DNA of 64,000 nucleotides, taken from a virus. Lineage: Duplodnaviria; Heunggongvirae; Uroviricota; Caudoviricetes. The notes below the pieces were generated by a model that ran no database searches, had not been told where the DNA came from, and saw only the letters and a list, made by a program, of their open reading frames with translations. Where the stretch lies: the IMG/VR virus record IMGVR_UViG_2648501839_000008; one strand, 5' to 3'. Every line of letters begins with the position of its first letter. The stretch's first letter is position 1. Both the position numbers and the translations under genes were made by a program. Below are positions 35,851 to 53,137 of this stretch, piece after piece.

Positions 35851-36741
35851 TTATGCCGGTAAAGCAATTTCTAACGGTTTATCCAAAGGTTGTTTGTCGA
35901 ATGCCAGCAGTGGCAGCGTGTCAGGCAGTCGACGACCAAAGTCAGGGTTTCGATACACCCCATACAACGGAGACGTAAAGCTCAGGTTGTGAATGTCCTT
36001 GAGCAACTTCACAATGCTGGCCTCGTCCACCAGACTGTCGGCAATGTCCTGAATCGTCGTGCCACGATTCCGCCCAGCTTTTGCCAGGGAACTGTTCTTG
36101 TGGTAGTCCGCCACCAGATCACGCAGTGCACGGCGACGACGAGACTCGCTCATTGCGAACAACTCTTTGACGATCGCCTCGTTATCACCCGGGTCGGAAC
36201 GGAAATGGCGCTGGAATACACGCAGTGCACTTTCATAGCTCTTCGGTCGCTCAGGGCGGATGAACTTAAACCCTGCTTTCATGGCGAAGGGATTGTATTT
36301 ACTCATCGAGGACTGGATCTCAATGATTGGCCGGTCATGCATCCTGCTAACCAGGTTAATCATTCGATAAGAGACGCCTACGCCACGATACTGAGTATCC
36401 ACAACTGAGCGACTGATCACCGCAAAGTTGTTATTCACGTACCGACCCCAGTACTGGTTAGCCACGGTGGTATTAGTGGTTGGTTTCAACTTAGGAAACA
36501 TGCGGTGGCGAGGTGCCAACAGTAGTTTCGGGTAAGCCATAACCACGACGCCCACCAGACGGTCATCAAGTTCGCAGCGATAGTAAGTTGGCGCGAAAGG
36601 TTTGCCGTCTGTTTTGTAGTGAAGCGACTTAAGAGCGTGCCAGTCCTCTACAGTTCCCTTTGTAACAGTCATTCGCTCCAGAAAGTCCAGATGACGCGGA
36701 AACTCTTCAGGGCGGTAGCGTTTAATGATGATGTCCGTCAT
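35851..36741 (-). CDS. GNAT-like acetyltransferase-fold protein with C-terminal extension
   Basis: ...AVISRSVVDTQYRGVGVSYRMINL... resembles GNAT motif A (acetyl-CoA binding); 296 aa. Confidence 0.45.
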   Translation of the reverse strand: MTDIIIKRYRPEEFPRHLDFLERMTVTKGTVEDWHALKSLHYKTDGKPFAPTYYRCELDDRLVGVVVMAYPKLLLAPRHRMFPKLKPTTNTTVANQYWGRYVNNNFAVISRSVVDTQYRGVGVSYRMINLVSRMHDRPIIEIQSSMSKYNPFAMKAGFKFIRPERPKSYESALRVFQRHFRSDPGDNEAIVKELFAMSESRRRRALRDLVADYHKNSSLAKAGRNRGTTIQDIADSLVDEASIVKLLKDIHNLSFTSPLYGVYRNPDFGRRLPDTLPLLAFDKQPLDKPLEIALPA

Positions 36742-37403
36742 GAATGGACCTCATCGTGACTACCATTGTGATATTCCACCTTCACGCGTTCTTTGTAGTG
36801 CTTGGTGATCTGCATATCCGGGCGCAGCGCGTTCTTCAGGTCTTCGTGAGTCGTCGCCACCATTACCGTCGCACCAACCTTTCGAGCGGCACGCTGGAGG
36901 TTAGACGCCACAACCTGAGCGGTTACACGGTCGAGAACAGCGCCGAACTCGTCAGCAGCCCACACTTTAGCGCCTGACTCAATCAGTTTGGCAATCTTGA
37001 GACGATATTTCTGGCCGTCTGACATTTCAGAAGGCTTGCGAACAAACAGATATGCATCGTTCAGACCAGCCATAGATAACAACCCAAGCGCATCACTGGT
37101 CGTTTTGCCCAACTGATCGATGACGTTAACCTCATTATCGAAGGTAAAATCATCGATGGAGGCTACAGACAGCCCTTCATCCTTCATCTGTCGTTGCAAC
37201 TCGCGCAGCACAACGGATTTGCCGGAACCGGATTGGCCGGTGATGTACACCACATCGCCCTGCTTCACTTCCAGCTCCAGATTGTCGTAAAGCGTCCACT
37301 CTTTTTCGTCCAGGCCAAGCCCGAACGACTCAGCGATTTCCAACGTGCGCGTGGTTTTATTTACGCGTGTCTGAAACGATACGTTGATGATGTATTTGCT
37401 CAT
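36738..37403 (-). CDS. ABC-type ATPase (stand-alone nucleotide-binding domain)
   Basis: Walker A GQSGSGKS, signature-like SDGQKYR, Walker B VWAADEF, H-loop TTHE; 221 aa. Confidence 0.65.
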   Translation of the reverse strand: MSKYIINVSFQTRVNKTTRTLEIAESFGLGLDEKEWTLYDNLELEVKQGDVVYITGQSGSGKSVVLRELQRQMKDEGLSVASIDDFTFDNEVNVIDQLGKTTSDALGLLSMAGLNDAYLFVRKPSEMSDGQKYRLKIAKLIESGAKVWAADEFGAVLDRVTAQVVASNLQRAARKVGATVMVATTHEDLKNALRPDMQITKHYKERVKVEYHNGSHDEVHS

Positions 37404-38068
37404 GCAGCCATCTCCCCGGAAGAGATCTTCTCCGCATATGCCACAAATGCGTCTACCCCGCTTTCTCCCGTCATTTCTTCCATGTGGGCAAGCAAATCAC
37501 CAACAACAATGGCAGAGCCAGCAGGGAGCGTTTTAAAGCCCAATACGTCGACAACACGTACTTCTTCCGCTGCAACTTCACGACTGATCTCGGTGTGTTC
37601 ATCCTTCTGTCGTTTAGTTTCTTCGCCAAGATCGATAACTAGCGAGTCGGTGTCCATTTCTTCTGTCATACTGCCAACGAGAACATTCAACTCACGCTCT
37701 TCAAAGCCGAAAACCTCGATATCGTCCAGAACAAGCGACTCAAGCTCTTTCTGTAGCTTAATTGCATCGTAATCAATGCTGGCAAGTCGGTTATCTTCAA
37801 GGCGCTTCGCACGAACCTCGTCATCACTGAGATCATCGCGAACAATAACCGGTACGCGCTCAAGTCCAGCAAAAATTGCAGCCTCACGGCGGCCGTGGCC
37901 AGTAATAATTACGTCGTTCTTATCGACCGTAATTGGCTGGTCAAATCCGCGCTTTTTAATGGCTGCGGCTAGATCTCGGATCTGCTGTTCATCATGCTTT
38001 TTGGCATTCATCTCATAGGGAATAAGATCTGCCGGGTCGCGATATACGATTTCAAACTTTTTGGTCAT
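37400..38068 (-). CDS. ParB-like nuclease-domain protein 1
   Basis: ParB-box-like ITGHGRREAA; start trimmed to ATG 38066-38068, overlapping the upstream stop (TAATG). Confidence 0.6.
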   Translation of the reverse strand: MTKKFEIVYRDPADLIPYEMNAKKHDEQQIRDLAAAIKKRGFDQPITVDKNDVIITGHGRREAAIFAGLERVPVIVRDDLSDDEVRAKRLEDNRLASIDYDAIKLQKELESLVLDDIEVFGFEERELNVLVGSMTEEMDTDSLVIDLGEETKRQKDEHTEISREVAAEEVRVVDVLGFKTLPAGSAIVVGDLLAHMEEMTGESGVDAFVAYAEKISSGEMAA

Positions 38069-38748
38069 TACATACGCTCCTTGTAGTAGTCGACCAGCCA
38101 CACCAGAGCCTCACCAGCGTTCTCCATTTCATTACCGGTGTTAATAGCCTGCTCTTTGATGATGTTTTTTATGGTTTCTGCAACACGATCTGACGCATCG
38201 AAAGTTACTTTGAAGCGCATGGTCTGATGTTCCGCACCCACACGTTCGGTTTTCTCTCGTTTGTCGGTATCGACAGGCTCATCACTACCACGAGACAACG
38301 CCTCCAGTGCTTCAAGGTCGATTGCCGCCTCTTTTGCTAAAACCATCGAGATTTCGTCGTCATACGGGGCGATTTCAGACAGTTGATAGTCAAGTTCTGA
38401 CTGAATTTCTTCAATGAAGCGTTGCAATGCGATTTGGTCGTCTTCACCGTATCGCTCGTTGTCCACCAGTGACATCTGTTTAGCTACGACATCGCTAATT
38501 TTGCCCACAGAAAGCACCGGAACCGTTGAAATTCCTTGCTCAATAGCAGCACGCCAGCGATGTTCGCCGCCGAGGATTTCAAAAAATCCATCTTCAAGTT
38601 CACGAGCCAAAATTGGCTTAAAAAAGCCCAATTTTTCGATAGAACCTTTCAGTTTTTCAAAATTCTGCGCACCAACCGAATTGGTGTTCCAGGTATTCGG
38701 GCGAAGGTTGGCAACATCAACCTGCAAAATCGTGATTTTTACATCCAT
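38068..38748 (-). CDS. ParB-like nuclease-domain protein 2
   Basis: ParB-box-like EILGGEHRWRAA; 226 aa. Confidence 0.6.
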   Translation of the reverse strand: MDVKITILQVDVANLRPNTWNTNSVGAQNFEKLKGSIEKLGFFKPILARELEDGFFEILGGEHRWRAAIEQGISTVPVLSVGKISDVVAKQMSLVDNERYGEDDQIALQRFIEEIQSELDYQLSEIAPYDDEISMVLAKEAAIDLEALEALSRGSDEPVDTDKREKTERVGAEHQTMRFKVTFDASDRVAETIKNIIKEQAINTGNEMENAGEALVWLVDYYKERM

Positions 38749-38767
38749 TTTATTGCTACAATCTACT

Positions 38768-38791
38768 AGGTATTCACTTACTTATTATAAT
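38768..38791. promoter_or_regulatory. Class-B-like site in the divergent region between the ParB operon and the helicase module
   Basis: aggtattcacttacttattataat; contains a perfect TATAAT on the plus strand. Confidence 0.4.
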
Positions 38792-38830
38792 AGCCAAATA
38801 ACATACAAAAGGCACTAAGGAAAGAGGTTT

Positions 38831-40390
38831 ATGACTGTTCGGATTGTATCTAACGCAGTAAATGCGCTTATTTCTGGCGCAGATGACAAGGTAAAGCAAC
38901 TGGTGCAGCAAATGTTGAGCTACGAAGTCGAGACTGGCGACTGGAAGGGCACAAGCACGATGTTCAACTGGAGTAAAAACTCGTTCCCTGCTGGCTTTGC
39001 CAAGCCTGTAGCGGCGAACTTGAACAAGGCGGGCATCAAATGTGTTCATATCCGCAAAGACAAAGCCCCGGCGCTTGGTAAACCAAATCCGGCGGTTAAC
39101 CCATTCCCATACAATCCTGATTATGCGTATCAGGATCAGACTGTGGAAACACTGGTTCGAGAGGGAATGATGATTGCGCAGATCGCTACTGGTGGCGGGA
39201 AATCTAACGTTGCCTGCAAAGCAGCTGCACGTATCGGTCGAATGACATTATTTTTAACAACCCGCTCTGTTCTGATGTTTCAAATGGCCGAAAACTTCCA
39301 GAGATCCATCGACTACCGCGCCGAAAATGGCGAACCGTGGTTAAAAGACCAAAAGGTTGGAGTCATTGGCTCGGGTGAGTTCCAGGTATCACGACATATC
39401 AACGTCGCTACAGTTCAAACTCTTGCAAGTTTCCTCGAAGAACCACCACGCGATGCAACACCAGATAAGAAAAGCTACCACCTCAAACGTCGGGAGTTGG
39501 TGAAACGCTTCCTTTCAAGTGTCTCTCTTCTTATTCTGGAAGAGGCGCATGAGTCTTCAGGCTCAAATTTCTATGACATCGCCAGATTATGTGTGAACGC
39601 GGACTATCGTCTGGCGCTTACAGCCACGCCGTTCATGAAGGATTCGACGGAAGCCAACATGCGCCTGATGGCGGTGGCCGGGCGAATTGAAATTAAAGTC
39701 ACAGAAAAGTACCTGATTGATCGAGGCATTCTGGCAAAGCCGTACTTCCTTTATCATAAAGTTGCCTACAAGCCAGACGAGGCCAGAATCAAGGCCGAAC
39801 TTGCCAACAAACACCTCAATTTTAGAGTTGGTATGAGCACCGCCTACCAAAAGGCTTATCAGTTGGGGATCGTGTATAATTTGGGACGTAACGAGGCCAT
39901 TGTTCGCGAAGCATTGCTCTATAAGCAACATTCTCTCAATTGTATGACTCTGGTTCGTCTTAAACGCCACGGGCAAATCCTGATGGAAATGATGAAAGAG
40001 TCCGGCCTTAGAGTTGACTTCATCTATGGGGAATCTAACCAGGCGACAAGGCAAGCAAAGCTGAACAGTTTAGCGTCTGGAGAAATAGATGTTTTAATAG
40101 GCTCGACTATTCTGGATGTCGGTGTTGATGTGCCAAGCGTTGGTGCGGTCATTCTTGCTGGTGGTGGGAAAGCAGAAGTTGAAATGAGGCAGCGTGTCGG
40201 TCGTGGCTTACGAGCCAAAAAAAATCAGGCAAACGTGTGTTTTATCACTGATTTCATTGACATTAGCAACAAATACCTGTTGTCTCACTCTTATGAGCGA
40301 AAACACATCATCGACACCACACCTGGCTTTGCAGAAGGTGTATTGCCTATTGATGGAGCATTCGATTTTGGAGTTCTGAAACGAGATTAG
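38831..40390 (+). CDS. SF2 (DEAD/DEAH-box type) helicase
   Basis: Motif I ATGGGKS, motif II ILEEAHES, motif III LTATP, motif VI QRVGRGLR; RBS AAAGAGG. Confidence 0.7.
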   Translation: MTVRIVSNAVNALISGADDKVKQLVQQMLSYEVETGDWKGTSTMFNWSKNSFPAGFAKPVAANLNKAGIKCVHIRKDKAPALGKPNPAVNPFPYNPDYAYQDQTVETLVREGMMIAQIATGGGKSNVACKAAARIGRMTLFLTTRSVLMFQMAENFQRSIDYRAENGEPWLKDQKVGVIGSGEFQVSRHINVATVQTLASFLEEPPRDATPDKKSYHLKRRELVKRFLSSVSLLILEEAHESSGSNFYDIARLCVNADYRLALTATPFMKDSTEANMRLMAVAGRIEIKVTEKYLIDRGILAKPYFLYHKVAYKPDEARIKAELANKHLNFRVGMSTAYQKAYQLGIVYNLGRNEAIVREALLYKQHSLNCMTLVRLKRHGQILMEMMKESGLRVDFIYGESNQATRQAKLNSLASGEIDVLIGSTILDVGVDVPSVGAVILAGGGKAEVEMRQRVGRGLRAKKNQANVCFITDFIDISNKYLLSHSYERKHIIDTTPGFAEGVLPIDGAFDFGVLKRD

Positions 40391-40392
40391 TT

Positions 40393-40671
40393 ATGAGCGA
40401 AAAGAAAACAACTTATTGTCAGGTAGCATTGTCTGATAAGGCCAATGACAAACTTGGAAAGTTTCAAGTGAAACTAAAAGAAAAAAATATCAAAATGTCT
40501 AAGGCTGAAGTCATAAATACCATTCTGGAACAATTGACAATGGCCGACTTTGACAAGGTTATATCTTCTGTCGGGGCTTCCGCTAAGACTCGTGAGAAAA
40601 TCATGCGTATCTATGAGAACTCTAATATGACAAAGGAAGATCTCGAAACGCTATTAAGCAGATTAAAATAA
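40393..40671 (+). CDS. Small ribbon-helix-helix-like DNA-binding protein
   Basis: 92 aa; predicted beta-strand then two helices (TYCQVAL...KLKEKNIKMSKAEVINTILEQL). Confidence 0.4.
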   Translation: MSEKKTTYCQVALSDKANDKLGKFQVKLKEKNIKMSKAEVINTILEQLTMADFDKVISSVGASAKTREKIMRIYENSNMTKEDLETLLSRLK

Positions 40672-40697
40672 TCACGCTATCAATTAGGGAGACAAAG

Positions 40698-41162
40698 ATG
40701 AAGTCTCCCATACTGTTCACTTTCTGTTCTAAAACTATCATGAAATACTCGCTTCTCCCTCTACTAACGTTACCAGTGTTGATGCTTACCGCGTGCCAAT
40801 CACGCCCAATATCAATCCATGACGCCAAACCAGCACCGCAGGCCAAAGTGTTCAAGTATCAAAGCGCAGCGCCAGCTACGTTGGTGGTAATGAGAGACAC
40901 AGGTTTTGTAGGAGCTGGATGTGATGCTTCCATTTTCATCAACGGCGAAACTGTCGCAAAACTGGCTACAGGCGAAAAAGCGACTTTCCATTTAAATGCC
41001 GGAGAATTAATTGTGGGTGCATCTCTTGAAGGTGCAGGTTTATGTGCTCTAAACCCCGCTCGTCAAGAGCGAGAAACGACTCTGAAGAATGGAGACACAA
41101 AAGCGTTCAGGGTGTTCACCAGCAATTCTGGTGACATCGACATTCTGCCAACAACTCTGTGA
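40698..41162 (+). CDS. Lipoprotein
   Basis: Signal peptide with lipobox LMLTAC; GGGAG RBS. Confidence 0.5.
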   Translation: MKSPILFTFCSKTIMKYSLLPLLTLPVLMLTACQSRPISIHDAKPAPQAKVFKYQSAAPATLVVMRDTGFVGAGCDASIFINGETVAKLATGEKATFHLNAGELIVGASLEGAGLCALNPARQERETTLKNGDTKAFRVFTSNSGDIDILPTTL

Positions 41163-41166
41163 TGAC

Positions 41167-41691
41167 ATGACAACCAAAGATATTACCTACGGTATCCAAG
41201 CTGAACTCTGGCCGCGAGATTACACTAACGTTGAAAAACTACTGATGTTCTGGCGCAGAGAACAAATTCCTGTAAGGGTCACTCTCGAAGATGGCCAGGC
41301 GTTTTGCATGTACGTTTATGGCCTCATGCCATCTCGTAACAAAGTTGACCTTTGCCCAGCCCCTTTTGACAAAGAAAATCGTATAAGGCTCCCACTTGAA
41401 CGCATTAGTACAATTGAATCAGGTGTGGTTGACAGTATCGCTCACGATTTCAAAGGTCGACTAACAGTTCACCCTGATTATGTCGATAATCGGCCATCAC
41501 GCCGCGATTTTTTTGCAATTTGCAACCAAGCCTACAAAGCAAACAAATCTATAAGGGTGTACATGGCGGATGGCCGTGAAATTGAGGGGGTGTCAGCAGG
41601 CGCAGATGCTTGTCAGGTTACACTACGTGTCGAGAACGGTAGAAAAATAGTTGTTTTGTTCGATTGGGTTGAACGAATTTTGCCTTTTTGA
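41167..41691 (+). CDS. Hypothetical protein (174 aa)
   Basis: ORF track trimmed to the ATG at 41167 after the upstream stop. Confidence 0.4.
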   Translation: MTTKDITYGIQAELWPRDYTNVEKLLMFWRREQIPVRVTLEDGQAFCMYVYGLMPSRNKVDLCPAPFDKENRIRLPLERISTIESGVVDSIAHDFKGRLTVHPDYVDNRPSRRDFFAICNQAYKANKSIRVYMADGREIEGVSAGADACQVTLRVENGRKIVVLFDWVERILPF

Positions 41692-41694
41692 GTT

Positions 41695-42003
41695 ATGAAA
41701 TCGATATTGTTACCACCATTATTTTTACTTTGCTCAGTTGCGGCAAATGCAATGGACTATAAGCCTGTCATTCAGTCGCTGATGAATGACGTGTGCTCAA
41801 CGTCTCAGAATGTATCAGTTTGCATGTATCAATTTTCGGCAGCCGTAAAAGCAGGAAAAGCGATAGGTGAGAATGTGGAACTGTGTAAGAAAGTGGCAAA
41901 TGAAGAAAGGGCAATGTTGGATTGCGAATCTAGCGAGTCATCGGCACAGTTCGTTGATGCGCTATTTGACACCAATCGTAAGGCTGTAGAGTCTGTTCAA
42001 TAA
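41695..42003 (+). CDS. Small secreted Cys-containing protein
   Basis: Signal peptide MKSILLPPLFLLCSVAANA; 102 aa. Confidence 0.45.
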   Translation: MKSILLPPLFLLCSVAANAMDYKPVIQSLMNDVCSTSQNVSVCMYQFSAAVKAGKAIGENVELCKKVANEERAMLDCESSESSAQFVDALFDTNRKAVESVQ

Positions 42004-42194
42004 ATCTATAAGGTTAATAACCGGCTAAGTCCGGTTATTATTTTTCACATCACTTCTTTATATCTACAAATCAAATAACCTAAATATATATAAGGTCTAA
42101 AGCCGCAATCGATTATTTATTTAGGGAACACCTTCGACGATCTCGCTTTTATTTCTAGGACTTTCATCCCTGCAAAAAATTTTAAAAAAAACAC

Positions 42195-42222
42195 TTGCAA
42201 TCTTTTTTCGCGTATCGATAAT
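42195..42222 (+). promoter_or_regulatory. Sigma70-type promoter of the AT-rich moron
   Basis: TTGCAA-16 bp-GATAAT with an upstream A-tract (UP-like), about 65 nt before the ATG at 42288. Confidence 0.55.
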
Positions 42223-42287
42223 TGAACTCGTCGAAAGCGAAGACGCTAACGACAATAAATTTTAAATTTACATAAGGAAAAATTATC

Positions 42288-42938
42288 ATGGCTAACATTA
42301 TCATTTCTAAAAAATCCATCATTGAAGCTGCTTCCATTGTATCCGATGAACTGCGCGAAAAAGCAGATCTGGCAACTCAAACATATAACGAACATTATAA
42401 AAATGGTACGCACACTAAAGCAGACAAAGCAAATATGCAAGCTGCGACCACTAAACTTGCTTACTTCATCAACAACGTCGTAAACGCAGTAGAAGACGAA
42501 AAATTATGCTCTGTTTTCTACTATGCGATTAAAGCAAGCAAACAAGCGCCAGAAGTATTTTTCCGTGATGCAATGACTAATAGTTATTCTCTGGAAAAAC
42601 TGGTTTATCTGGTTAAATCAATTAAATCTGGTAAATGCGTTTATTCCATCGCTGATATGTCAGGATCTCGTGTATTCGCTTTAATCGATATGATTAACGA
42701 CGAGATCGACACGTTCACCAATGGCGCTGTTTTCGATTTAATGAATGAAGCTAAAAAAGCGTGTGAAATTAAATTGGACGCTGGCTATACTCAAGCCAAC
42801 CAGTTGATCAATCTTTGCGAACGTCTTGGACTTGTTGAAAAAGTCAAAGGAGCTGGGAGCGCGAAAGCTGGTACTCAGCAATATCGCTTCATTAAAAATG
42901 ATTTCTACAATTATTTAGCTGATGCTTTCAAAGCGTAA
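42288..42938 (+). CDS. Hypothetical protein (216 aa), AT-rich moron gene 1
   Basis: ORF track; RBS AAGGAAAAA; codon usage much more AT-rich than the flanks. Confidence 0.5.
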   Translation: MANIIISKKSIIEAASIVSDELREKADLATQTYNEHYKNGTHTKADKANMQAATTKLAYFINNVVNAVEDEKLCSVFYYAIKASKQAPEVFFRDAMTNSYSLEKLVYLVKSIKSGKCVYSIADMSGSRVFALIDMINDEIDTFTNGAVFDLMNEAKKACEIKLDAGYTQANQLINLCERLGLVEKVKGAGSAKAGTQQYRFIKNDFYNYLADAFKA

Positions 42939-42986
42939 TAAATGGAATCAAGCGCCCATAGTGGGCGCTTTAAAGGAGCTTTAAAG

Positions 42987-43190
42987 ATGGTCAGCTATGA
43001 CAAGATCCGCGCGGAATATCGCGCAAAGTATCGCGCTTATAAACTGGAATTAATCGATGATTTGATCGCGCAACGCGACCAATTAAATTTTACGTTTTCT
43101 GATTTGCTTAACAGCAAGCGAGATTGCAAGCGCAAACGTGAATACTTACGTTTAAGCGCATTAATCGGAAAACTTCAAAATTCTATTTAA
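42987..43190 (+). CDS. Small basic coiled-coil protein (67 aa), moron gene 2
   Basis: ATG at 42987 with AAAGGAG RBS; preceded by hairpin AGCGCCCATAGTGGGCGCT. Confidence 0.4.
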   Translation: MVSYDKIRAEYRAKYRAYKLELIDDLIAQRDQLNFTFSDLLNSKRDCKRKREYLRLSALIGKLQNSI

Positions 43191-43209
43191 TTTTTTAAGG
43201 AGCTTAATC

Positions 43210-43440
43210 ATGTTTGTTCTTATCGCTGGCGTTAACGTCCATAATGAATATTATGTTAATCGCATCGCTGGGATCGCTGGTTACGCTGGGCGCGCAGTCG
43301 AGCTTATAGATGAAACGACGCGCAAAATTGACTTATTGAGCGACCAGGAGCGAAAAAAAGCAGACGTGAACGACGCTGATATATTTTTAATGTTAAAAGC
43401 GTTTGTAGAAATGGGATTTAAAATCAGTTTACACAAATAA
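43210..43440 (+). CDS. Small protein (76 aa), moron gene 3
   Basis: ORF track; RBS AAGGAG. Confidence 0.4.
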   Translation: MFVLIAGVNVHNEYYVNRIAGIAGYAGRAVELIDETTRKIDLLSDQERKKADVNDADIFLMLKAFVEMGFKISLHK

Positions 43441-43445
43441 AATCG

Positions 43446-43470
43446 AGCGCCCACTATGGGCGCTTTTTTC
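43446..43470 (+). terminator. Rho-independent terminator of the moron
   Basis: AGCGCCCACTATGGGCGCT followed by TTTTTT. Confidence 0.7.
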
Positions 43471-43924
43471 GTTTCCAATACTCCCACCATAACGCGCCAT
43501 CATTAGCGCGTTTTTTATTGTCTTTAACTCACTCCAACAACATAAAAATAAGCGCCAAAATAACGCCATAGACGCGCTTTTATATCCTTACCAGTACATA
43601 CCCATTACTTAACACATTAACGCGCTTAAAACGCGTTATATTGCGCTATAGAGTATGGTTAATCATTGGCTTTTAGTCTTGCTTTATGATCCGCGTTTAT
43701 TTGTCGGCGCGGATCGGCATTTTGTTTTGTTCCGTATCCGCTCGCGTATTATGTGCGCGTGATTTTTCACATAATCACACCACTTAATCACGTATGTGAT
43801 TATGCTACGAAAGAAATCTGGATGTCTCAGGCGACGAAAGTCATCATAATTTTCGCCGCTCACCTGTCCGACAACCGCTGGTTGGATTCCACCAGCTTCC
43901 CGATGTTTTTTCTACATAAAGGCG

Positions 43925-44048
43925 AATGCAGCCGTTTCCCGAAAAAATCCTGGCCGTTTCCCGTCGGCTCATGAATGCTTTCCTCGCCGTTTCTGAAAAT
44001 TTCCCTGCGGCAGCTGGTGGCTATAGATAAAGGGCCGTTTCTGGCCCT
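43925..44048. repeat. Iteron-like direct repeats (GCCGTTTCCCG/GCCGTTTCTG family), cluster 1
   Basis: At least 4 copies (about 43930, 43953, 43985, 44033); same repeat family as 46820-46960. Confidence 0.5.
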
Positions 44049-44056
44049 CTTCTCAG

Positions 44057-44539
44057 TTACACGCCATCAAGGATGTGGATGCGGTTGCTTGCGTATACAT
44101 TCAGCATAAAGTTAGCGCAAAACAGTTTCCATGTGTCAACGCCAGCGGTATACGTAATGTTTTTGCATTTAATCGCATTGTTGGCGATCCGCATCCCCTG
44201 CGATACTGCTTCATCGTCGGAAAATTTGAACGACGATTGAGTTTTAATCCAGAAAGAAATCTGCGTAGCGAACTCAATCAGCTTGGACTGGCAGAATCGC
44301 CCGGAGCGCACCGGAAAGACGAACGTTCCGAATCCAGAATTTACCACATACGCTTTCTCAAATACCCGCGAGTAACGACGATTGCCAATGATGTCGCGTG
44401 CAATAATGCATTTTTCTTGTGCTGACAGTTCTACCGTCTCATTGTCGCGCCATGCACCAAGTACTCGTTTTTCAATGTCAGAGAACGTTACAGCGATATT
44501 GCCATGTGCGGGTGCGTTTACAGTAGCGATAAAATTCAT
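44057..44539 (-). CDS. Hypothetical early protein (160 aa)
   Basis: ORF track; terminator hairpin GGGCCAGAAACGGCCC just 3' of the stop. Confidence 0.4.
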   Translation of the reverse strand: MNFIATVNAPAHGNIAVTFSDIEKRVLGAWRDNETVELSAQEKCIIARDIIGNRRYSRVFEKAYVVNSGFGTFVFPVRSGRFCQSKLIEFATQISFWIKTQSSFKFSDDEAVSQGMRIANNAIKCKNITYTAGVDTWKLFCANFMLNVYASNRIHILDGV

Positions 44540-44560
44540 GATTAATTCCTTATCGTAAAT

Positions 44561-44593
44561 AACAAATTGTTTTCTTGTTTGTGTTAATTATCG
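44561..44593 (-). promoter_or_regulatory. Class-A site (palindrome plus extended -10-like element)
   Basis: aacaaattgttttct + gtgttaattatcg. Confidence 0.5.
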
Positions 44594-44743
44594 TTGTACG
44601 AATAAGGCGTCAAAGTGGAAAGTTGCGGTAGCCGGACGGGAACAGGTGGGTTTGTCGGTTGCCTGGAGGTAAGAGGTTGGTGTTTTTAGCCTGAGGGAAG
44701 CAGGATGGTCATTTAAGGCCACCAGCATTGGTGACCTTATTCT

Positions 44744-45031
44744 TCAGTGGAGCAGACCGATGTCGATGGTATCCCCTGAATCATCCACACGGATCATCAG
44801 CATGGCAAAGGCGTTTAGTGGATAGCTTGCGTGCCATTCAGGGAAGCGGTCATCTCGCATGAAGTCGGCAATGTCGTAAACGCATCCCTCAAAGTGGAAG
44901 AATCGCGTGCTTACCTGCTCATCATAATCCACATGATCCATTTCTTGCTGTTCTGTTTCCGGCAAGTCCAGCCATGATTCGAGGAATACATTTTGTGCTT
45001 TGGTGGTAATGGTGAAATCAGTCATGAGCAT
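44744..45031 (-). CDS. Small highly acidic early protein (95 aa)
   Basis: ORF track; about 20 Asp/Glu versus 5 Lys/Arg. Confidence 0.4.
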   Translation of the reverse strand: MLMTDFTITTKAQNVFLESWLDLPETEQQEMDHVDYDEQVSTRFFHFEGCVYDIADFMRDDRFPEWHASYPLNAFAMLMIRVDDSGDTIDIGLLH

Positions 45032-46999: not shown

Positions 47000-47960
47000 G
47001 AGTTGAATAAATACGAAAAAGGAGGCGACACCCCTCCTTCCCTCCCCACTTATACATACCTGGCTTCTTCGCTATGCATGTTGTGTTTTATCTGTCTCAA
47101 CCTCTCTATAGGCGTTAATGCTCACTCCTTCCAGAATGTTCTATACGGCGACTATTTCTGTTGGTGAATTGGGTGTGTTGTTTTCTCTGTCGGTGTATGT
47201 GGTTTCGTTCGTTTTGCGGTGGTTCTTCTATGGGGTGTTCTCGTCGTTTTGGTGATTGTTCTTCTCCATGTATGGAGTAATGGCAGGTGGGCGAATCCTT
47301 TCGTTATTGTGTTTGAGTTGTTTGTCTGGAGTGTGTGAAGGGCTTTTGTAGTTATTCGTGTATTGGGTAATGGCGTTTCCCGTGATTGTTATGTTTCGTG
47401 TCTTTTGGGATTGAGAGAATCCTTGCGGTTACAGGCTTCGTTGGGTTTTCAGTGATTCTGGTGTTTCTTCGCTGTTTGGGGAATGGCGTGTCGTGGGTAT
47501 CGCGCGTATGAATGTTTTCGGATTGCCTGTGAAAGTTAGGTTGGCTGTCCGGTAGCCTGGGGAGAAGAGGTGGGTCTTTTCGGTAGCCTGCCATAAAGAG
47601 GTTGGTTGTTTTGGGGAATGGCATGTGTGTTATTTAGTTGTTTTGTTATAGCTGAAAATAAGTTGTTTATATAGTTATGTAACGCAATGGGAGTGATTTT
47701 GAGCGTGTGTTTTTTCTTGGTAGTGTGTTGGGTCGTCTGTGGTGAAAATTGGACGCTGTGGCGCTGTCTGCTGCGTAGAATTACGGGTATAAGAAGTGAT
47801 GTGTGAATACGTCAATTTTTTAGACCAAATCGGGTGAAAGCGTTGACGTTTCGTTGATCTGTTATTTAGTTGTTTTCTTATTGGTATAAACAACGTTAAC
47901 CTATTGATATTTAAAGGTGTGATTGCAGGTATGGAAGAAGAGTAGTGGCGATCAACGGAT
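47000..47960. repeat. Noncoding, strand-biased (G+T-rich on plus) degenerate repeat region
   Basis: No credible ORF; recurrent GGGGAATGGCGTGT-like and CGGTAGCCTGG..GAGGTGGGT-like units; the latter also occur at 44615-44690. Confidence 0.5.
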
Positions 47961-48022
47961 TCTTATAGAAAAGAATCAAATTGTGACCGCCATTATCAAC
48001 TGATTGATTAAGCTAATTACAC

Positions 48023-52036: not shown

Positions 52037-53137
52037 ATGAGCGAGTCCAAATCGCCGGATGCCCTGAGAGCAATGGTAGCCGGTACGCTGGCTAATTTTC
52101 AGCACCCAACCCTGAAACACAACCTGACTACGCTTAAAGCGTTACACCATGTTGCGTTGATGGATGACACACTGCATGTCGAACTAATCATGCCTTTCGT
52201 GTGGAATAAGCCTTTTGAAGACCTGAAAGAGCAATGTAGTGGTGATCTGCTCCGTATCACTGGCGCAAAGGCTATTGACTGGAAGCTGTCGTACAACATT
52301 GCCACGCTTAAGCGCGTCAAAAACCAACCAGGCATTAATGGTGTTAAGAATATTATCGCCGTAAGCTCAGGCAAGGGCGGTGTAGGCAAATCGTCCACAG
52401 CAGTAAACTTGGCACTGGCTTTGGCTGCTGAAGGTGCGAAAGTTGGTATTTTGGATGCCGATATCTATGGTCCATCAATTCCAACCATGCTGGGCGCGGA
52501 AAACCAACGTCCAACCTCACCTGACGGTACTCACATGGCACCTATCATGTCTCATGGCCTGGCAACCAACTCTATTGGTTATCTGGTCACCGACGACAAT
52601 GCAATGGTGTGGCGTGGACCGATGGCCAGCAAGGCGCTGATGCAGATGTTGCAGGAAACTCTATGGCCTGATCTGGACTATCTCGTTCTCGATATGCCGC
52701 CGGGCACTGGTGATATTCAGTTGACGCTGGCGCAGAACATTCCTGTAACTGGTGCGGTTGTGGTAACTACGCCGCAAGACATCGCGCTGATCGATGCGAA
52801 GAAAGGCATTGTGATGTTCGAAAAAGTCGAAGTGCCGGTACTAGGTATCGTCGAAAACATGAGTGTGCATATTTGCAGTAACTGCGGTCATCACGAGCCA
52901 ATTTTTGGCACCGGTGGCGCACAGAAACTGGCCGAGAAATACAACACGCAGTTGTTAGGCCAAATGCCACTTCATATCTCTCTTCGTGAAGATCTGGATA
53001 ACGGAACACCAACCGTTATTAGTCGTCCAGATAGCGAATTTACGGCTATTTATCGTGACCTCGCAGATCGCGTTGCTGCCCAAATGTATTGGCAAGGTGA
53101 AGTAATACCTGGCGAAATCGCATTCCGCGCAGTGTGA
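52037..53137 (+). CDS. apbC: Fe-S cluster carrier ATPase ApbC/Mrp
   Basis: Deviant Walker A SGKGGVGKSS, CxxC motif ...HICSNCGHH..., divergent from metG as in enterobacterial chromosomes; RBS AAGGAG. Confidence 0.9.
   Translation: MSESKSPDALRAMVAGTLANFQHPTLKHNLTTLKALHHVALMDDTLHVELIMPFVWNKPFEDLKEQCSGDLLRITGAKAIDWKLSYNIATLKRVKNQPGINGVKNIIAVSSGKGGVGKSSTAVNLALALAAEGAKVGILDADIYGPSIPTMLGAENQRPTSPDGTHMAPIMSHGLATNSIGYLVTDDNAMVWRGPMASKALMQMLQETLWPDLDYLVLDMPPGTGDIQLTLAQNIPVTGAVVVTTPQDIALIDAKKGIVMFEKVEVPVLGIVENMSVHICSNCGHHEPIFGTGGAQKLAEKYNTQLLGQMPLHISLREDLDNGTPTVISRPDSEFTAIYRDLADRVAAQMYWQGEVIPGEIAFRAV

Follow-up and report, generated by a model that had tools for sequence, protein, structure and literature searches.

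Background

In Salmonella, the fljA gene lies downstream of an alternative flagellin gene (fljB; in E. coli, flk or flm) and functions in phase variation. FljA proteins keep the fliC mRNA from being translated, and motile E. coli lost motility on receiving a plasmid with fljA(z66) (PMC2652032). We identified a member of this protein family among the plus-strand genes at positions 38,831 to 42,003 of a 64,000-nucleotide stretch of DNA (the window) from the virus record IMGVR_UViG_2648501839_000008, which by nucleotide similarity and synteny is an SSU5-like phage-plasmid. SSU5-like phage-plasmids are common in Enterobacterales and include pHCM2 of S. Typhi and pMT1/pFra of Y. pestis. The original prediction for this region described a superfamily 2 (SF2) helicase, a ribbon-helix-helix (RHH) protein, a lipoprotein, a 174-amino-acid protein that was left unnamed, and a secreted cysteine-containing protein, and it proposed that they might form either replication or recombination machinery or an envelope-associated exclusion or defence module. 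The unnamed protein, which is the FljA-family member, is the most informative gene of the region.

With moderate confidence we favour a different reading, in which the 3.2-kb unit would be a conserved stretch of the phage-plasmid backbone that contains three kinds of genes: a core pair consisting of the helicase and a 92-amino-acid partner, a slot for cargo genes, and a core gene encoding an RNA-binding repressor of the FljA family.

A FljA-family gene in the phage-plasmid backbone

The gene at 41167-41691 (plus strand) encodes a 174-amino-acid protein that matches Pfam PF03614 (Flag1_repress) with E = 2.5e-84 and 281.7 bits against a cut-off of 24, over positions 1-170 of the 170-position profile. 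The protein is 36% identical to Salmonella FljA (54% positives) and collinear with it over 171 of 174 residues, with P0099, from the cluster 'phase 1 flagellin gene repressor FljA', as the reference. The two proteins share the motifs DI(T/S)YG..AE.WPRDY, PSRRD(F/Y)F, ACQV and FDWV.RI. They are equal in length, and presumably they also share a fold and a way of acting on mRNA leaders.

The family is small. An exhaustive profile search of 1.84 billion representative proteins recovered only 29 clusters, about eight of them full length, and a scan of genome contigs recovered six loci, all on phage-plasmids. The other full-length clusters with a readable context lie on 104-112-kb contigs of Klebsiella, Xenorhabdus and Providencia and have the same gene order. 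Most full-length clusters of the FljA family are found on contigs of phage-plasmid size rather than in chromosomal flagellar loci. RefSeq names the gene 'transcriptional regulator'.

The genomic context differs from that of Salmonella fljA in several ways. The gene is a fixed part of the phage-plasmid backbone, and it is also carried in hosts without flagella. The gene directly upstream is the lipoprotein gene or, in other elements, other cargo, and not an alternative flagellin gene such as fljB, flkA or flmA. Searches with E. coli FliC (tblastn) found no flagellin homologue in the window or in 17 related loci, nor was any complete SSU5-like phage record among the flagellin matches. The FljA-like gene is therefore an orphan.

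The assignment of the element is based on a comparison of positions 38000-43500 with phage records (megablast). The closest match is Escherichia phage CMS-2020a, a 108-kb phage-plasmid of E. coli (100% coverage, 98.6% identity). Escherichia phage Cyrano and Salmonella phage SSU5 cover 72-77% of the region with 80-95% identity, SSU5 being about 80% identical over the aligned parts. Additionally, the gene order is common to the window, SSU5 and pFra of Y. pestis.

Predicted structure of the FljA-like protein

An AlphaFold model computed from 18 homologues has a predicted local distance difference test score (pLDDT) of 84.4 and consists of two units (residues 20-85 and 112-173), each with a helix and five strands. 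In the model both units conform to the Sm fold, in which an N-terminal helix precedes five strongly bent strands. Foldseek matches to the model have a probability of 1.0 and target-normalised template modelling (TM) scores of 0.7-0.85, and Hfq is the top match by both structure-comparison methods. A weak match to Pfam Hfq in the second unit (19.1 bits) falls below the cut-off of 27 bits, and NCBI names the Providencia homologues 'RNA chaperone Hfq'. A structure search of BFVD yielded Sm-like phage proteins of one domain only, and nothing that matched well over the full length. Hfq itself has one domain and forms a homohexamer, whereas the model of the FljA-like protein has two Sm-like domains per chain. 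Neither Pfam nor the model revealed a helix-turn-helix or other DNA-binding domain, and our literature search found no paper that describes FljA as Hfq-like in fold.

The most conserved segment of the family (T7 Y8 G9 A12 E13 W15 P16 R17 D18 Y19) is shared with Salmonella FljA. It lies within residues 1-19 (41167-41223), which are predicted to be disordered (pLDDT about 40). Such conservation of a disordered segment suggests an N-terminal motif that would fold only on a partner, either RNA or protein.

Distribution, selection and exchange of FljA-like alleles

The FljA-like gene is present in 831 plasmids of PLSDB (tblastn), with 822 near-full-length matches. These plasmids include 341 from Klebsiella and 62 from Y. 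pestis, are nearly all non-mobilisable and, among the matches listed, are mostly about 105-115 kb in length. Klebsiella and Y. pestis are aflagellate or non-motile. In E. coli the gene occurs in 243 of 5,426 complete genomes, always on a plasmid. The ratio of non-synonymous to synonymous substitution rates (dN/dS) of the gene is 0.09-0.26, including pairs of Klebsiella plasmids, and the gene is under purifying selection.

The alleles of the gene do not follow the backbone. Among Klebsiella plasmids the helicase is 100% identical, the 216-amino-acid gene that follows the FljA-like gene 99-100% and the 92-amino-acid gene 95-100%, whereas the FljA-like alleles are only 66-74% identical. The breakpoints at the DNA level lie just after the 92-amino-acid gene and exactly at the stop codon of the FljA-like gene. 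This pattern indicates that old FljA-like alleles move together with the cargo slot from one backbone to another. Housekeeping regulators show such swapping less typically than do specificity or accessory determinants.

A FljA-like gene (P0074, 52% identical) was also found within positions 385158-397682 of the E. coli chromosome CP125919.1, where it is surrounded by small genes of unknown function and by ParB, ABC and helicase genes in degraded form. This locus is apparently an integrated, decaying SSU5-like element, as judged from its gene content, and no flagellin gene is among the neighbours of the homologue. Two SSU5-like contigs (JAEWTL010000044.1 and DALYYK010000001.1) were deposited as metagenome-assembled genomes of Bacillota, and a protein attributed to 'Gemella morbillorum' (P0079) is FljA-like in its first half only. 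All three records are probably mis-binned or chimeric.

Possible targets of the FljA-like protein

On the basis of the predicted fold and the analogy with Salmonella FljA, we consider the protein likely to be an RNA-binding post-transcriptional regulator, which would bind an mRNA leader and block translation as Salmonella FljA does. Because the gene is an orphan with a fixed position in every element of the SSU5 group, including those of aflagellate Klebsiella, its main target would more likely be an RNA that accompanies the element in every host, be it an mRNA that the element encodes or a universally conserved host mRNA; we hold this part of the proposal with slightly less than even confidence. 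The target is probably not fliC alone and perhaps not fliC at all. In E. coli and other motile hosts, fliC could be silenced in addition, and fliC as a target in E. coli is a tentative proposal that we regard as somewhat doubtful.

The main rival is a form of lysogenic conversion in which the FljA-like protein would bind the 5' leader of host fliC and block flagellin translation, so that carriers lose their flagella, evade flagellum-dependent phages and flagellin-sensing immunity, and are spared the cost of flagella. Full-length membership of the FljA family with shared motifs speaks for it, as does the effect of the fljA(z66) plasmid on E. coli, which indicates that a divergent FljA can act across genera (PMC2652032), and most host genera of these elements are motile. 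However, the gene is intact and under purifying selection in the plasmids of hosts that lack flagella, it has no partner flagellin gene, and its identity to FljA is modest. Additionally, S. Typhi CT18, which carries pHCM2, nonetheless types as H:d, and this argues against constitutive silencing of fliC by the pHCM2 homologue. We consider flagellin silencing in motile hosts to be a rather unlikely primary function, if still the strongest of the alternatives. It is much less likely that the protein is a transcription regulator or a WYL-like sensor whose Sm-like barrels bind a ligand or single-stranded DNA rather than RNA. The RefSeq name, which many records share, would agree with such a role, but Hfq is the top structural match by both methods, a DNA-binding domain was not detected, and the characterised FljA acts on mRNA translation.

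Several observations weigh against an RNA-binding repressor of an element-encoded or universal target, and against our reading of the unit as a whole. The promoter, leader and first codons of E. coli K-12 fliC gave only chance-level matches to the window (E >= 0.35), and a search of positions 38000-45000 with Rfam at a permissive threshold found no credible match and no candidate target RNA. Divergence of 26-34% between alleles on Klebsiella backbones with 99-100% identity elsewhere is not expected for a regulator of a conserved backbone target unless the binding surface is invariant. The RNA specificity may also differ from that of FljA, to which the protein is only 36% identical. The tandem Hfq/Sm-like fold comes from a predicted model, and alignments with hhalign of the two halves of the FljA-like protein to each other and to E. 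coli Hfq, made from alignments of low diversity, were not significant. With regard to the helicase, residues 1-98, the N-terminal region for which the original prediction advised a domain search, have no match in Pfam or the Protein Data Bank (PDB), and the role in replication or recombination is inferred from the protein family alone.

A further proposal concerns the origin of the family. At its root, FljA may have been a tandem-Sm riboregulator of phage-plasmids that controlled the translation of an RNA important to the SSU5-type life cycle or reprogrammed host mRNAs, and the FljA of Salmonella and E. coli would then be a captured copy. We regard this as speculative and rather unlikely. It fits the observations that most of the family diversity is on phage-plasmids, that the gene is kept in aflagellate hosts, and that old alleles are shuffled between identical backbones in the manner of specificity or immunity determinants. 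Our literature search found no paper on the function of the SSU5 or pHCM2 homologue of FljA or on effects of phage-plasmids on motility.

Organization of the locus in related elements

We compared 17 loci from E. coli (Cyrano), Salmonella (SSU5), five K. pneumoniae plasmids (four from the main lineage, one from a distant one), pFra, Kluyvera, Buttiauxella, Providencia, Xenorhabdus and metagenome contigs. In all 17 the order is ParB, divergent from the helicase gene, followed by the gene of about 92 amino acids, a variable slot, the FljA-family gene, a spacer of about 300 nt and the gene of about 216 amino acids. The variable slot contains from zero to five unrelated genes on either strand, and the cargo genes of the other elements have no matches in Pfam. 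In the window the slot is occupied by the gene for an outer-membrane-type lipoprotein. The comparison indicates that the helicase and 92-amino-acid genes are core genes and tightly coupled, that the FljA-like gene is a core gene within a swappable cassette, and that the lipoprotein and 102-amino-acid genes are insertions. The five genes, presented in the original prediction as a single module, are thus not one conserved functional unit.

In SSU5 a strong hairpin terminator lies between the 92-amino-acid and lipoprotein genes (L002 5389-5420). The corresponding interval in the window (40672-40697) is only 26 nt long and contains no hairpin. It follows from the SSU5 terminator that in that phage the helicase pair forms a unit apart from the genes downstream, and that the transcriptional coupling of the helicase pair to the downstream genes differs between close relatives.

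The SF2 helicase and its 92-amino-acid partner

The first gene (38831-40390, plus strand) encodes a 519-amino-acid helicase that matches phrog_16 (E = 2e-93) and, above the cut-offs, Pfam ResIII, DEAD and Helicase_C. The helicase motifs described in the original prediction are indeed present (GGGKS at 121, EEAH, a DEAH variant, at 237, TAT at 264 and QRVGRGLR at 454), and with Walker A, a DExH-type motif II, motif III and motif VI in two RecA-like domains the sequence identifies it as a core SF2 enzyme of the XPB/UvsW type. Its best relatives in the PDB are archaeal XPB/Rad25 and T4 UvsW (E = 5e-13 to 2e-9), together with RecG. It shares the SF2 core and motifs I, II, III and VI with UvsW and XPB/Rad25, but the alignment is limited to the motor core (residues ~99-480), as with UvsW (2oca; E = 2e-9 to 6e-8). 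The Cyrano ortholog is annotated 'UvsW helicase', and searches of NCBIfam gave only sub-threshold helicase matches. The helicase is found in all related loci with 70-99% amino-acid identity and a dN/dS of 0.02-0.04; it is among the most constrained genes of the region and is under very strong purifying selection.

The second gene (40393-40671, plus strand; phrog_1466, E = 5e-46; no Pfam match) occurs in every related locus and usually starts 2-3 nt past the helicase stop; we regard it as translationally coupled to the helicase gene. The protein evolves rapidly, with 52-63% identity between elements in which the helicase is 91-93% identical. Its description as an RHH protein could not be confirmed. 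There is no Pfam match to RHH, and an alignment-based AlphaFold model (pLDDT 50) has helices at residues 15-30 and 37-47 and an unstructured segment at residues 1-13. A profile search of the PDB returned only designed helical repeats, and hhalign with the sequences of Arc, Mnt, CopG and NikR gave the expected register, but only at E = 0.07. The protein is possibly an RHH-like DNA-binding protein. Based on family homology, the helicase and its partner would unwind or remodel branched DNA during replication or recombination of the element.

Accessory genes in the cargo slot and before the terminator

The lipoprotein gene (40698-41162, plus strand) is preceded by a GGGAGA Shine-Dalgarno sequence; an alternative start at 40743 would give a protein of 139 amino acids. 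The product matches phrog_890 'lipoprotein' (E = 1e-51) and has a weak match to DUF2846 in Pfam. As originally described, a lipobox LTAC follows a hydrophobic stretch, and the sequence MKYSLLPLLTLPVLMLTAC conforms to the pattern [LVI][ASTVI][GAS]C with a glutamine after the cysteine. The gene is present in SSU5, pMT1/pFra and the Kluyvera and Buttiauxella elements and absent from Cyrano and the Klebsiella elements. It was found in 421 plasmids, some of which are not SSU5-like.

The last gene (41695-42003, plus strand; phrog_9536, E = 6e-55) encodes a 102-amino-acid protein. The original prediction of a secreted cysteine-containing protein agrees with an N-terminal hydrophobic segment that ends in ANA and with four cysteines in the mature part, but alignments to the PHROG family and to the Salmonella homologues do not begin until residue 15-20. 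Secretion via a signal peptide is thus plausible, though not certain, from the sequence. The gene is absent from all 12 of 12 comparison loci and is present in 259 plasmids. About half of the related plasmids carry the lipoprotein gene and about a third the 102-amino-acid gene. In SSU5 the stop codon of the FljA-like gene is directly followed by ATCTATAAGGG..., and in the window the same sequence follows the stop codon of the 102-amino-acid gene; ATCTATAAGGGTAATAACCGG..., the start of the terminator, likewise stands directly after the FljA-like stop in SSU5 and after the 102-amino-acid stop in the window. The shared sequence indicates that the 102-amino-acid gene was inserted exactly between the FljA-like stop and the conserved terminator, in a position for co-transcription.

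The phage-encoded lipoproteins T5 Llp and Cor of phi80 and N15 are exclusion factors. The lipoprotein and 102-amino-acid genes resemble such phage morons in being small, patchy in distribution and inserted into an operon in a position for co-transcription, one of them just before the terminator. However, apart from the weak DUF2846 match, we found no similarity of their products to a characterised exclusion protein. An exclusion role for either protein is possible.

Defence and replication readings of the operon

Analysis of ten proteins of the region with PADLOC gave only generic helicase and ATPase matches (PbeA, type IV restriction enzyme, DpdF and others). Neither the FljA-like protein nor the two accessory proteins, the lipoprotein and the 102-amino-acid protein, had a match. 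We rejected a known defence system since the required components do not occur together.

The exclusion or defence module of the original prediction could be a superinfection-exclusion or anti-phage module at the envelope, with the helicase as effector or sensor and with the envelope as the site of action of the lipoprotein and the secreted protein. The precedents of T5 Llp and Cor agree with this, the lipoprotein slot is a cargo hotspot as is often the case for defence and exclusion islands, and the core of the helicase is similar to PbeA of the Dnd-associated defence system (E = 7e-23, residues 97-481). However, the PbeA profiles are 626-722 positions long and the helicase part alone is matched, with no PbeBCD or Dnd partners. 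Furthermore, the helicase is a universal backbone gene rather than part of an accessory island, and the envelope proteins are gained and lost independently of it. PADLOC thus provides no partner components for a defence module, and we regard this reading as quite improbable. The other reading, in which all five genes serve replication or recombination, fits the helicase only, and only by homology. The strong constraint on this core helicase, its relationship to UvsW, XPB and RecG, and a coupled small protein that perhaps binds DNA all point in this direction. However, the other three genes encode a lipoprotein, a FljA homologue of the RNA-binding type and a protein that is probably secreted; of these genes two are accessory, and the SSU5 terminator follows the 92-amino-acid gene. 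Additionally, no recognisable replication gene adjoins the helicase, whose neighbours are the ParB/packaging operon and small unknown genes. For the operon as a whole this is about equally improbable.

Gene boundaries and transcription signals

The five open reading frames (ORFs) are as originally described. Each matches a phage protein family (E <= 1e-46), and all except the 102-amino-acid ORF have homologues in related elements; they are thus genes rather than chance ORFs. The 92-amino-acid ORF starts 2 nt past the helicase stop, and the lipoprotein, FljA-like and 102-amino-acid ORFs are 3-4 nt apart.

The operon is divergent from the minus-strand ParB operon, as stated in the original prediction, with an 82-bp intergenic region (38749-38830) between them. 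This region contains a perfect TATAAT at 38786-38791 and the Shine-Dalgarno sequence of the helicase gene, AAGGAAAGAGG. The promoter scan did not report a full sigma-70 match in it, and a helicase promoter at this location is an inference from the sequence. At the other end, a hairpin with a T-run that resembles an intrinsic terminator (42015-42040, plus strand) directly follows the last gene. The hairpin is kept in seven aligned elements, with compensatory stem changes in the most distant of them. Because of this conserved structure, the end of the unit at 42003 is a real transcription-unit boundary.

Downstream is the conserved 216-amino-acid gene (42288-42938, plus strand; phrog_1513, function unknown, E = 4e-139), which is present in nearly all related loci and always follows the FljA-like gene after the spacer. 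The spacer contains a sigma-70-like promoter on the plus strand at 42195-42222 (TTGCAA, 16 nt, GATAAT), both hexamers of which are conserved across the aligned elements. Upstream of the promoter is an invariant 19-mer, ATTTAGGGAACACCTTCGA (42119-42137), which is identical in seven of seven aligned elements, even in the lineage most distant from the others. The window contains it only once, where 0.03 chance matches are expected, and this conservation makes it a candidate regulatory site that may be bound by a conserved regulator.

The description of the operon as the only sizeable one on the plus strand is nearly right. The plus-strand block extends to 43440 with a second unit (42288-43440), which has its own conserved promoter and a strong terminator at 43445-43465, and a ParA-like gene (52037-53137) is also on the plus strand. 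A GC-rich hairpin, AGCGCCCA...TGGGCGCT, occurs twice, at 42950-42970 and 43445-43465. One copy forms the strong bidirectional terminator that ends the second plus-strand unit, and the other is oppositely oriented at the very start of an 82-amino-acid ORF.

The guanine-plus-cytosine (GC) content of the operon is lower than that of the structural genes, as had been noted, but only slightly (0.453 versus 0.480) and unevenly. The difference stems from the 92-amino-acid (0.358), 102-amino-acid (0.421) and FljA-like (0.448) genes; the helicase (0.474) and lipoprotein (0.481) genes do not differ from the structural genes.

Other features of the window

The rest of the window contains tail, head and packaging genes, the ParB-ParB-ABC ATPase-GNAT-like operon, and ParA-like, UmuD-like and methyltransferase genes. 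The minus-strand operon (35851-38748) adjoins the terminase genes and encodes two proteins with ParB N-terminal domains, followed in this list by an ATPase of the ABC type and a GNAT-like protein. Among SSU5, pFra and Klebsiella elements whose helicases are 91-93% identical, these last two proteins show 97-99% identity, and by this comparison the constraint on them appears unusually tight.

A region of about 1 kb (47060-48020) contains no ORF of at least 100 amino acids and is markedly asymmetric between the strands, with a GC skew of +0.32 and an AT skew of -0.32. It contains dispersed direct repeats, for example TTTGGGGAATGGCGTGT three times at a spacing of 113-135 nt; a tandem repeat array was not found there. 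These features resemble those of an origin or iteron region, or else of a region for non-coding RNA.

Implications

What is new here is limited to the context, predicted fold and distribution of the FljA-like gene, as the elements had already been sequenced and the SSU5 ortholog was already annotated as a putative flagellin repressor. The helicase, its small partner and the cargo genes are ordinary backbone and are useful mainly as a map of the sites at which cargo is accepted. If the FljA homologue silences flagellin, carriage of an SSU5-like element would alter motility, H-antigen expression, recognition by flagellin-sensing immunity and susceptibility to flagellum-dependent phages. If it instead regulates the element, phage-plasmids would have a riboregulator of a new kind, made up of two Hfq-like domains, and this would point to the evolutionary source of the textbook repressor FljA.

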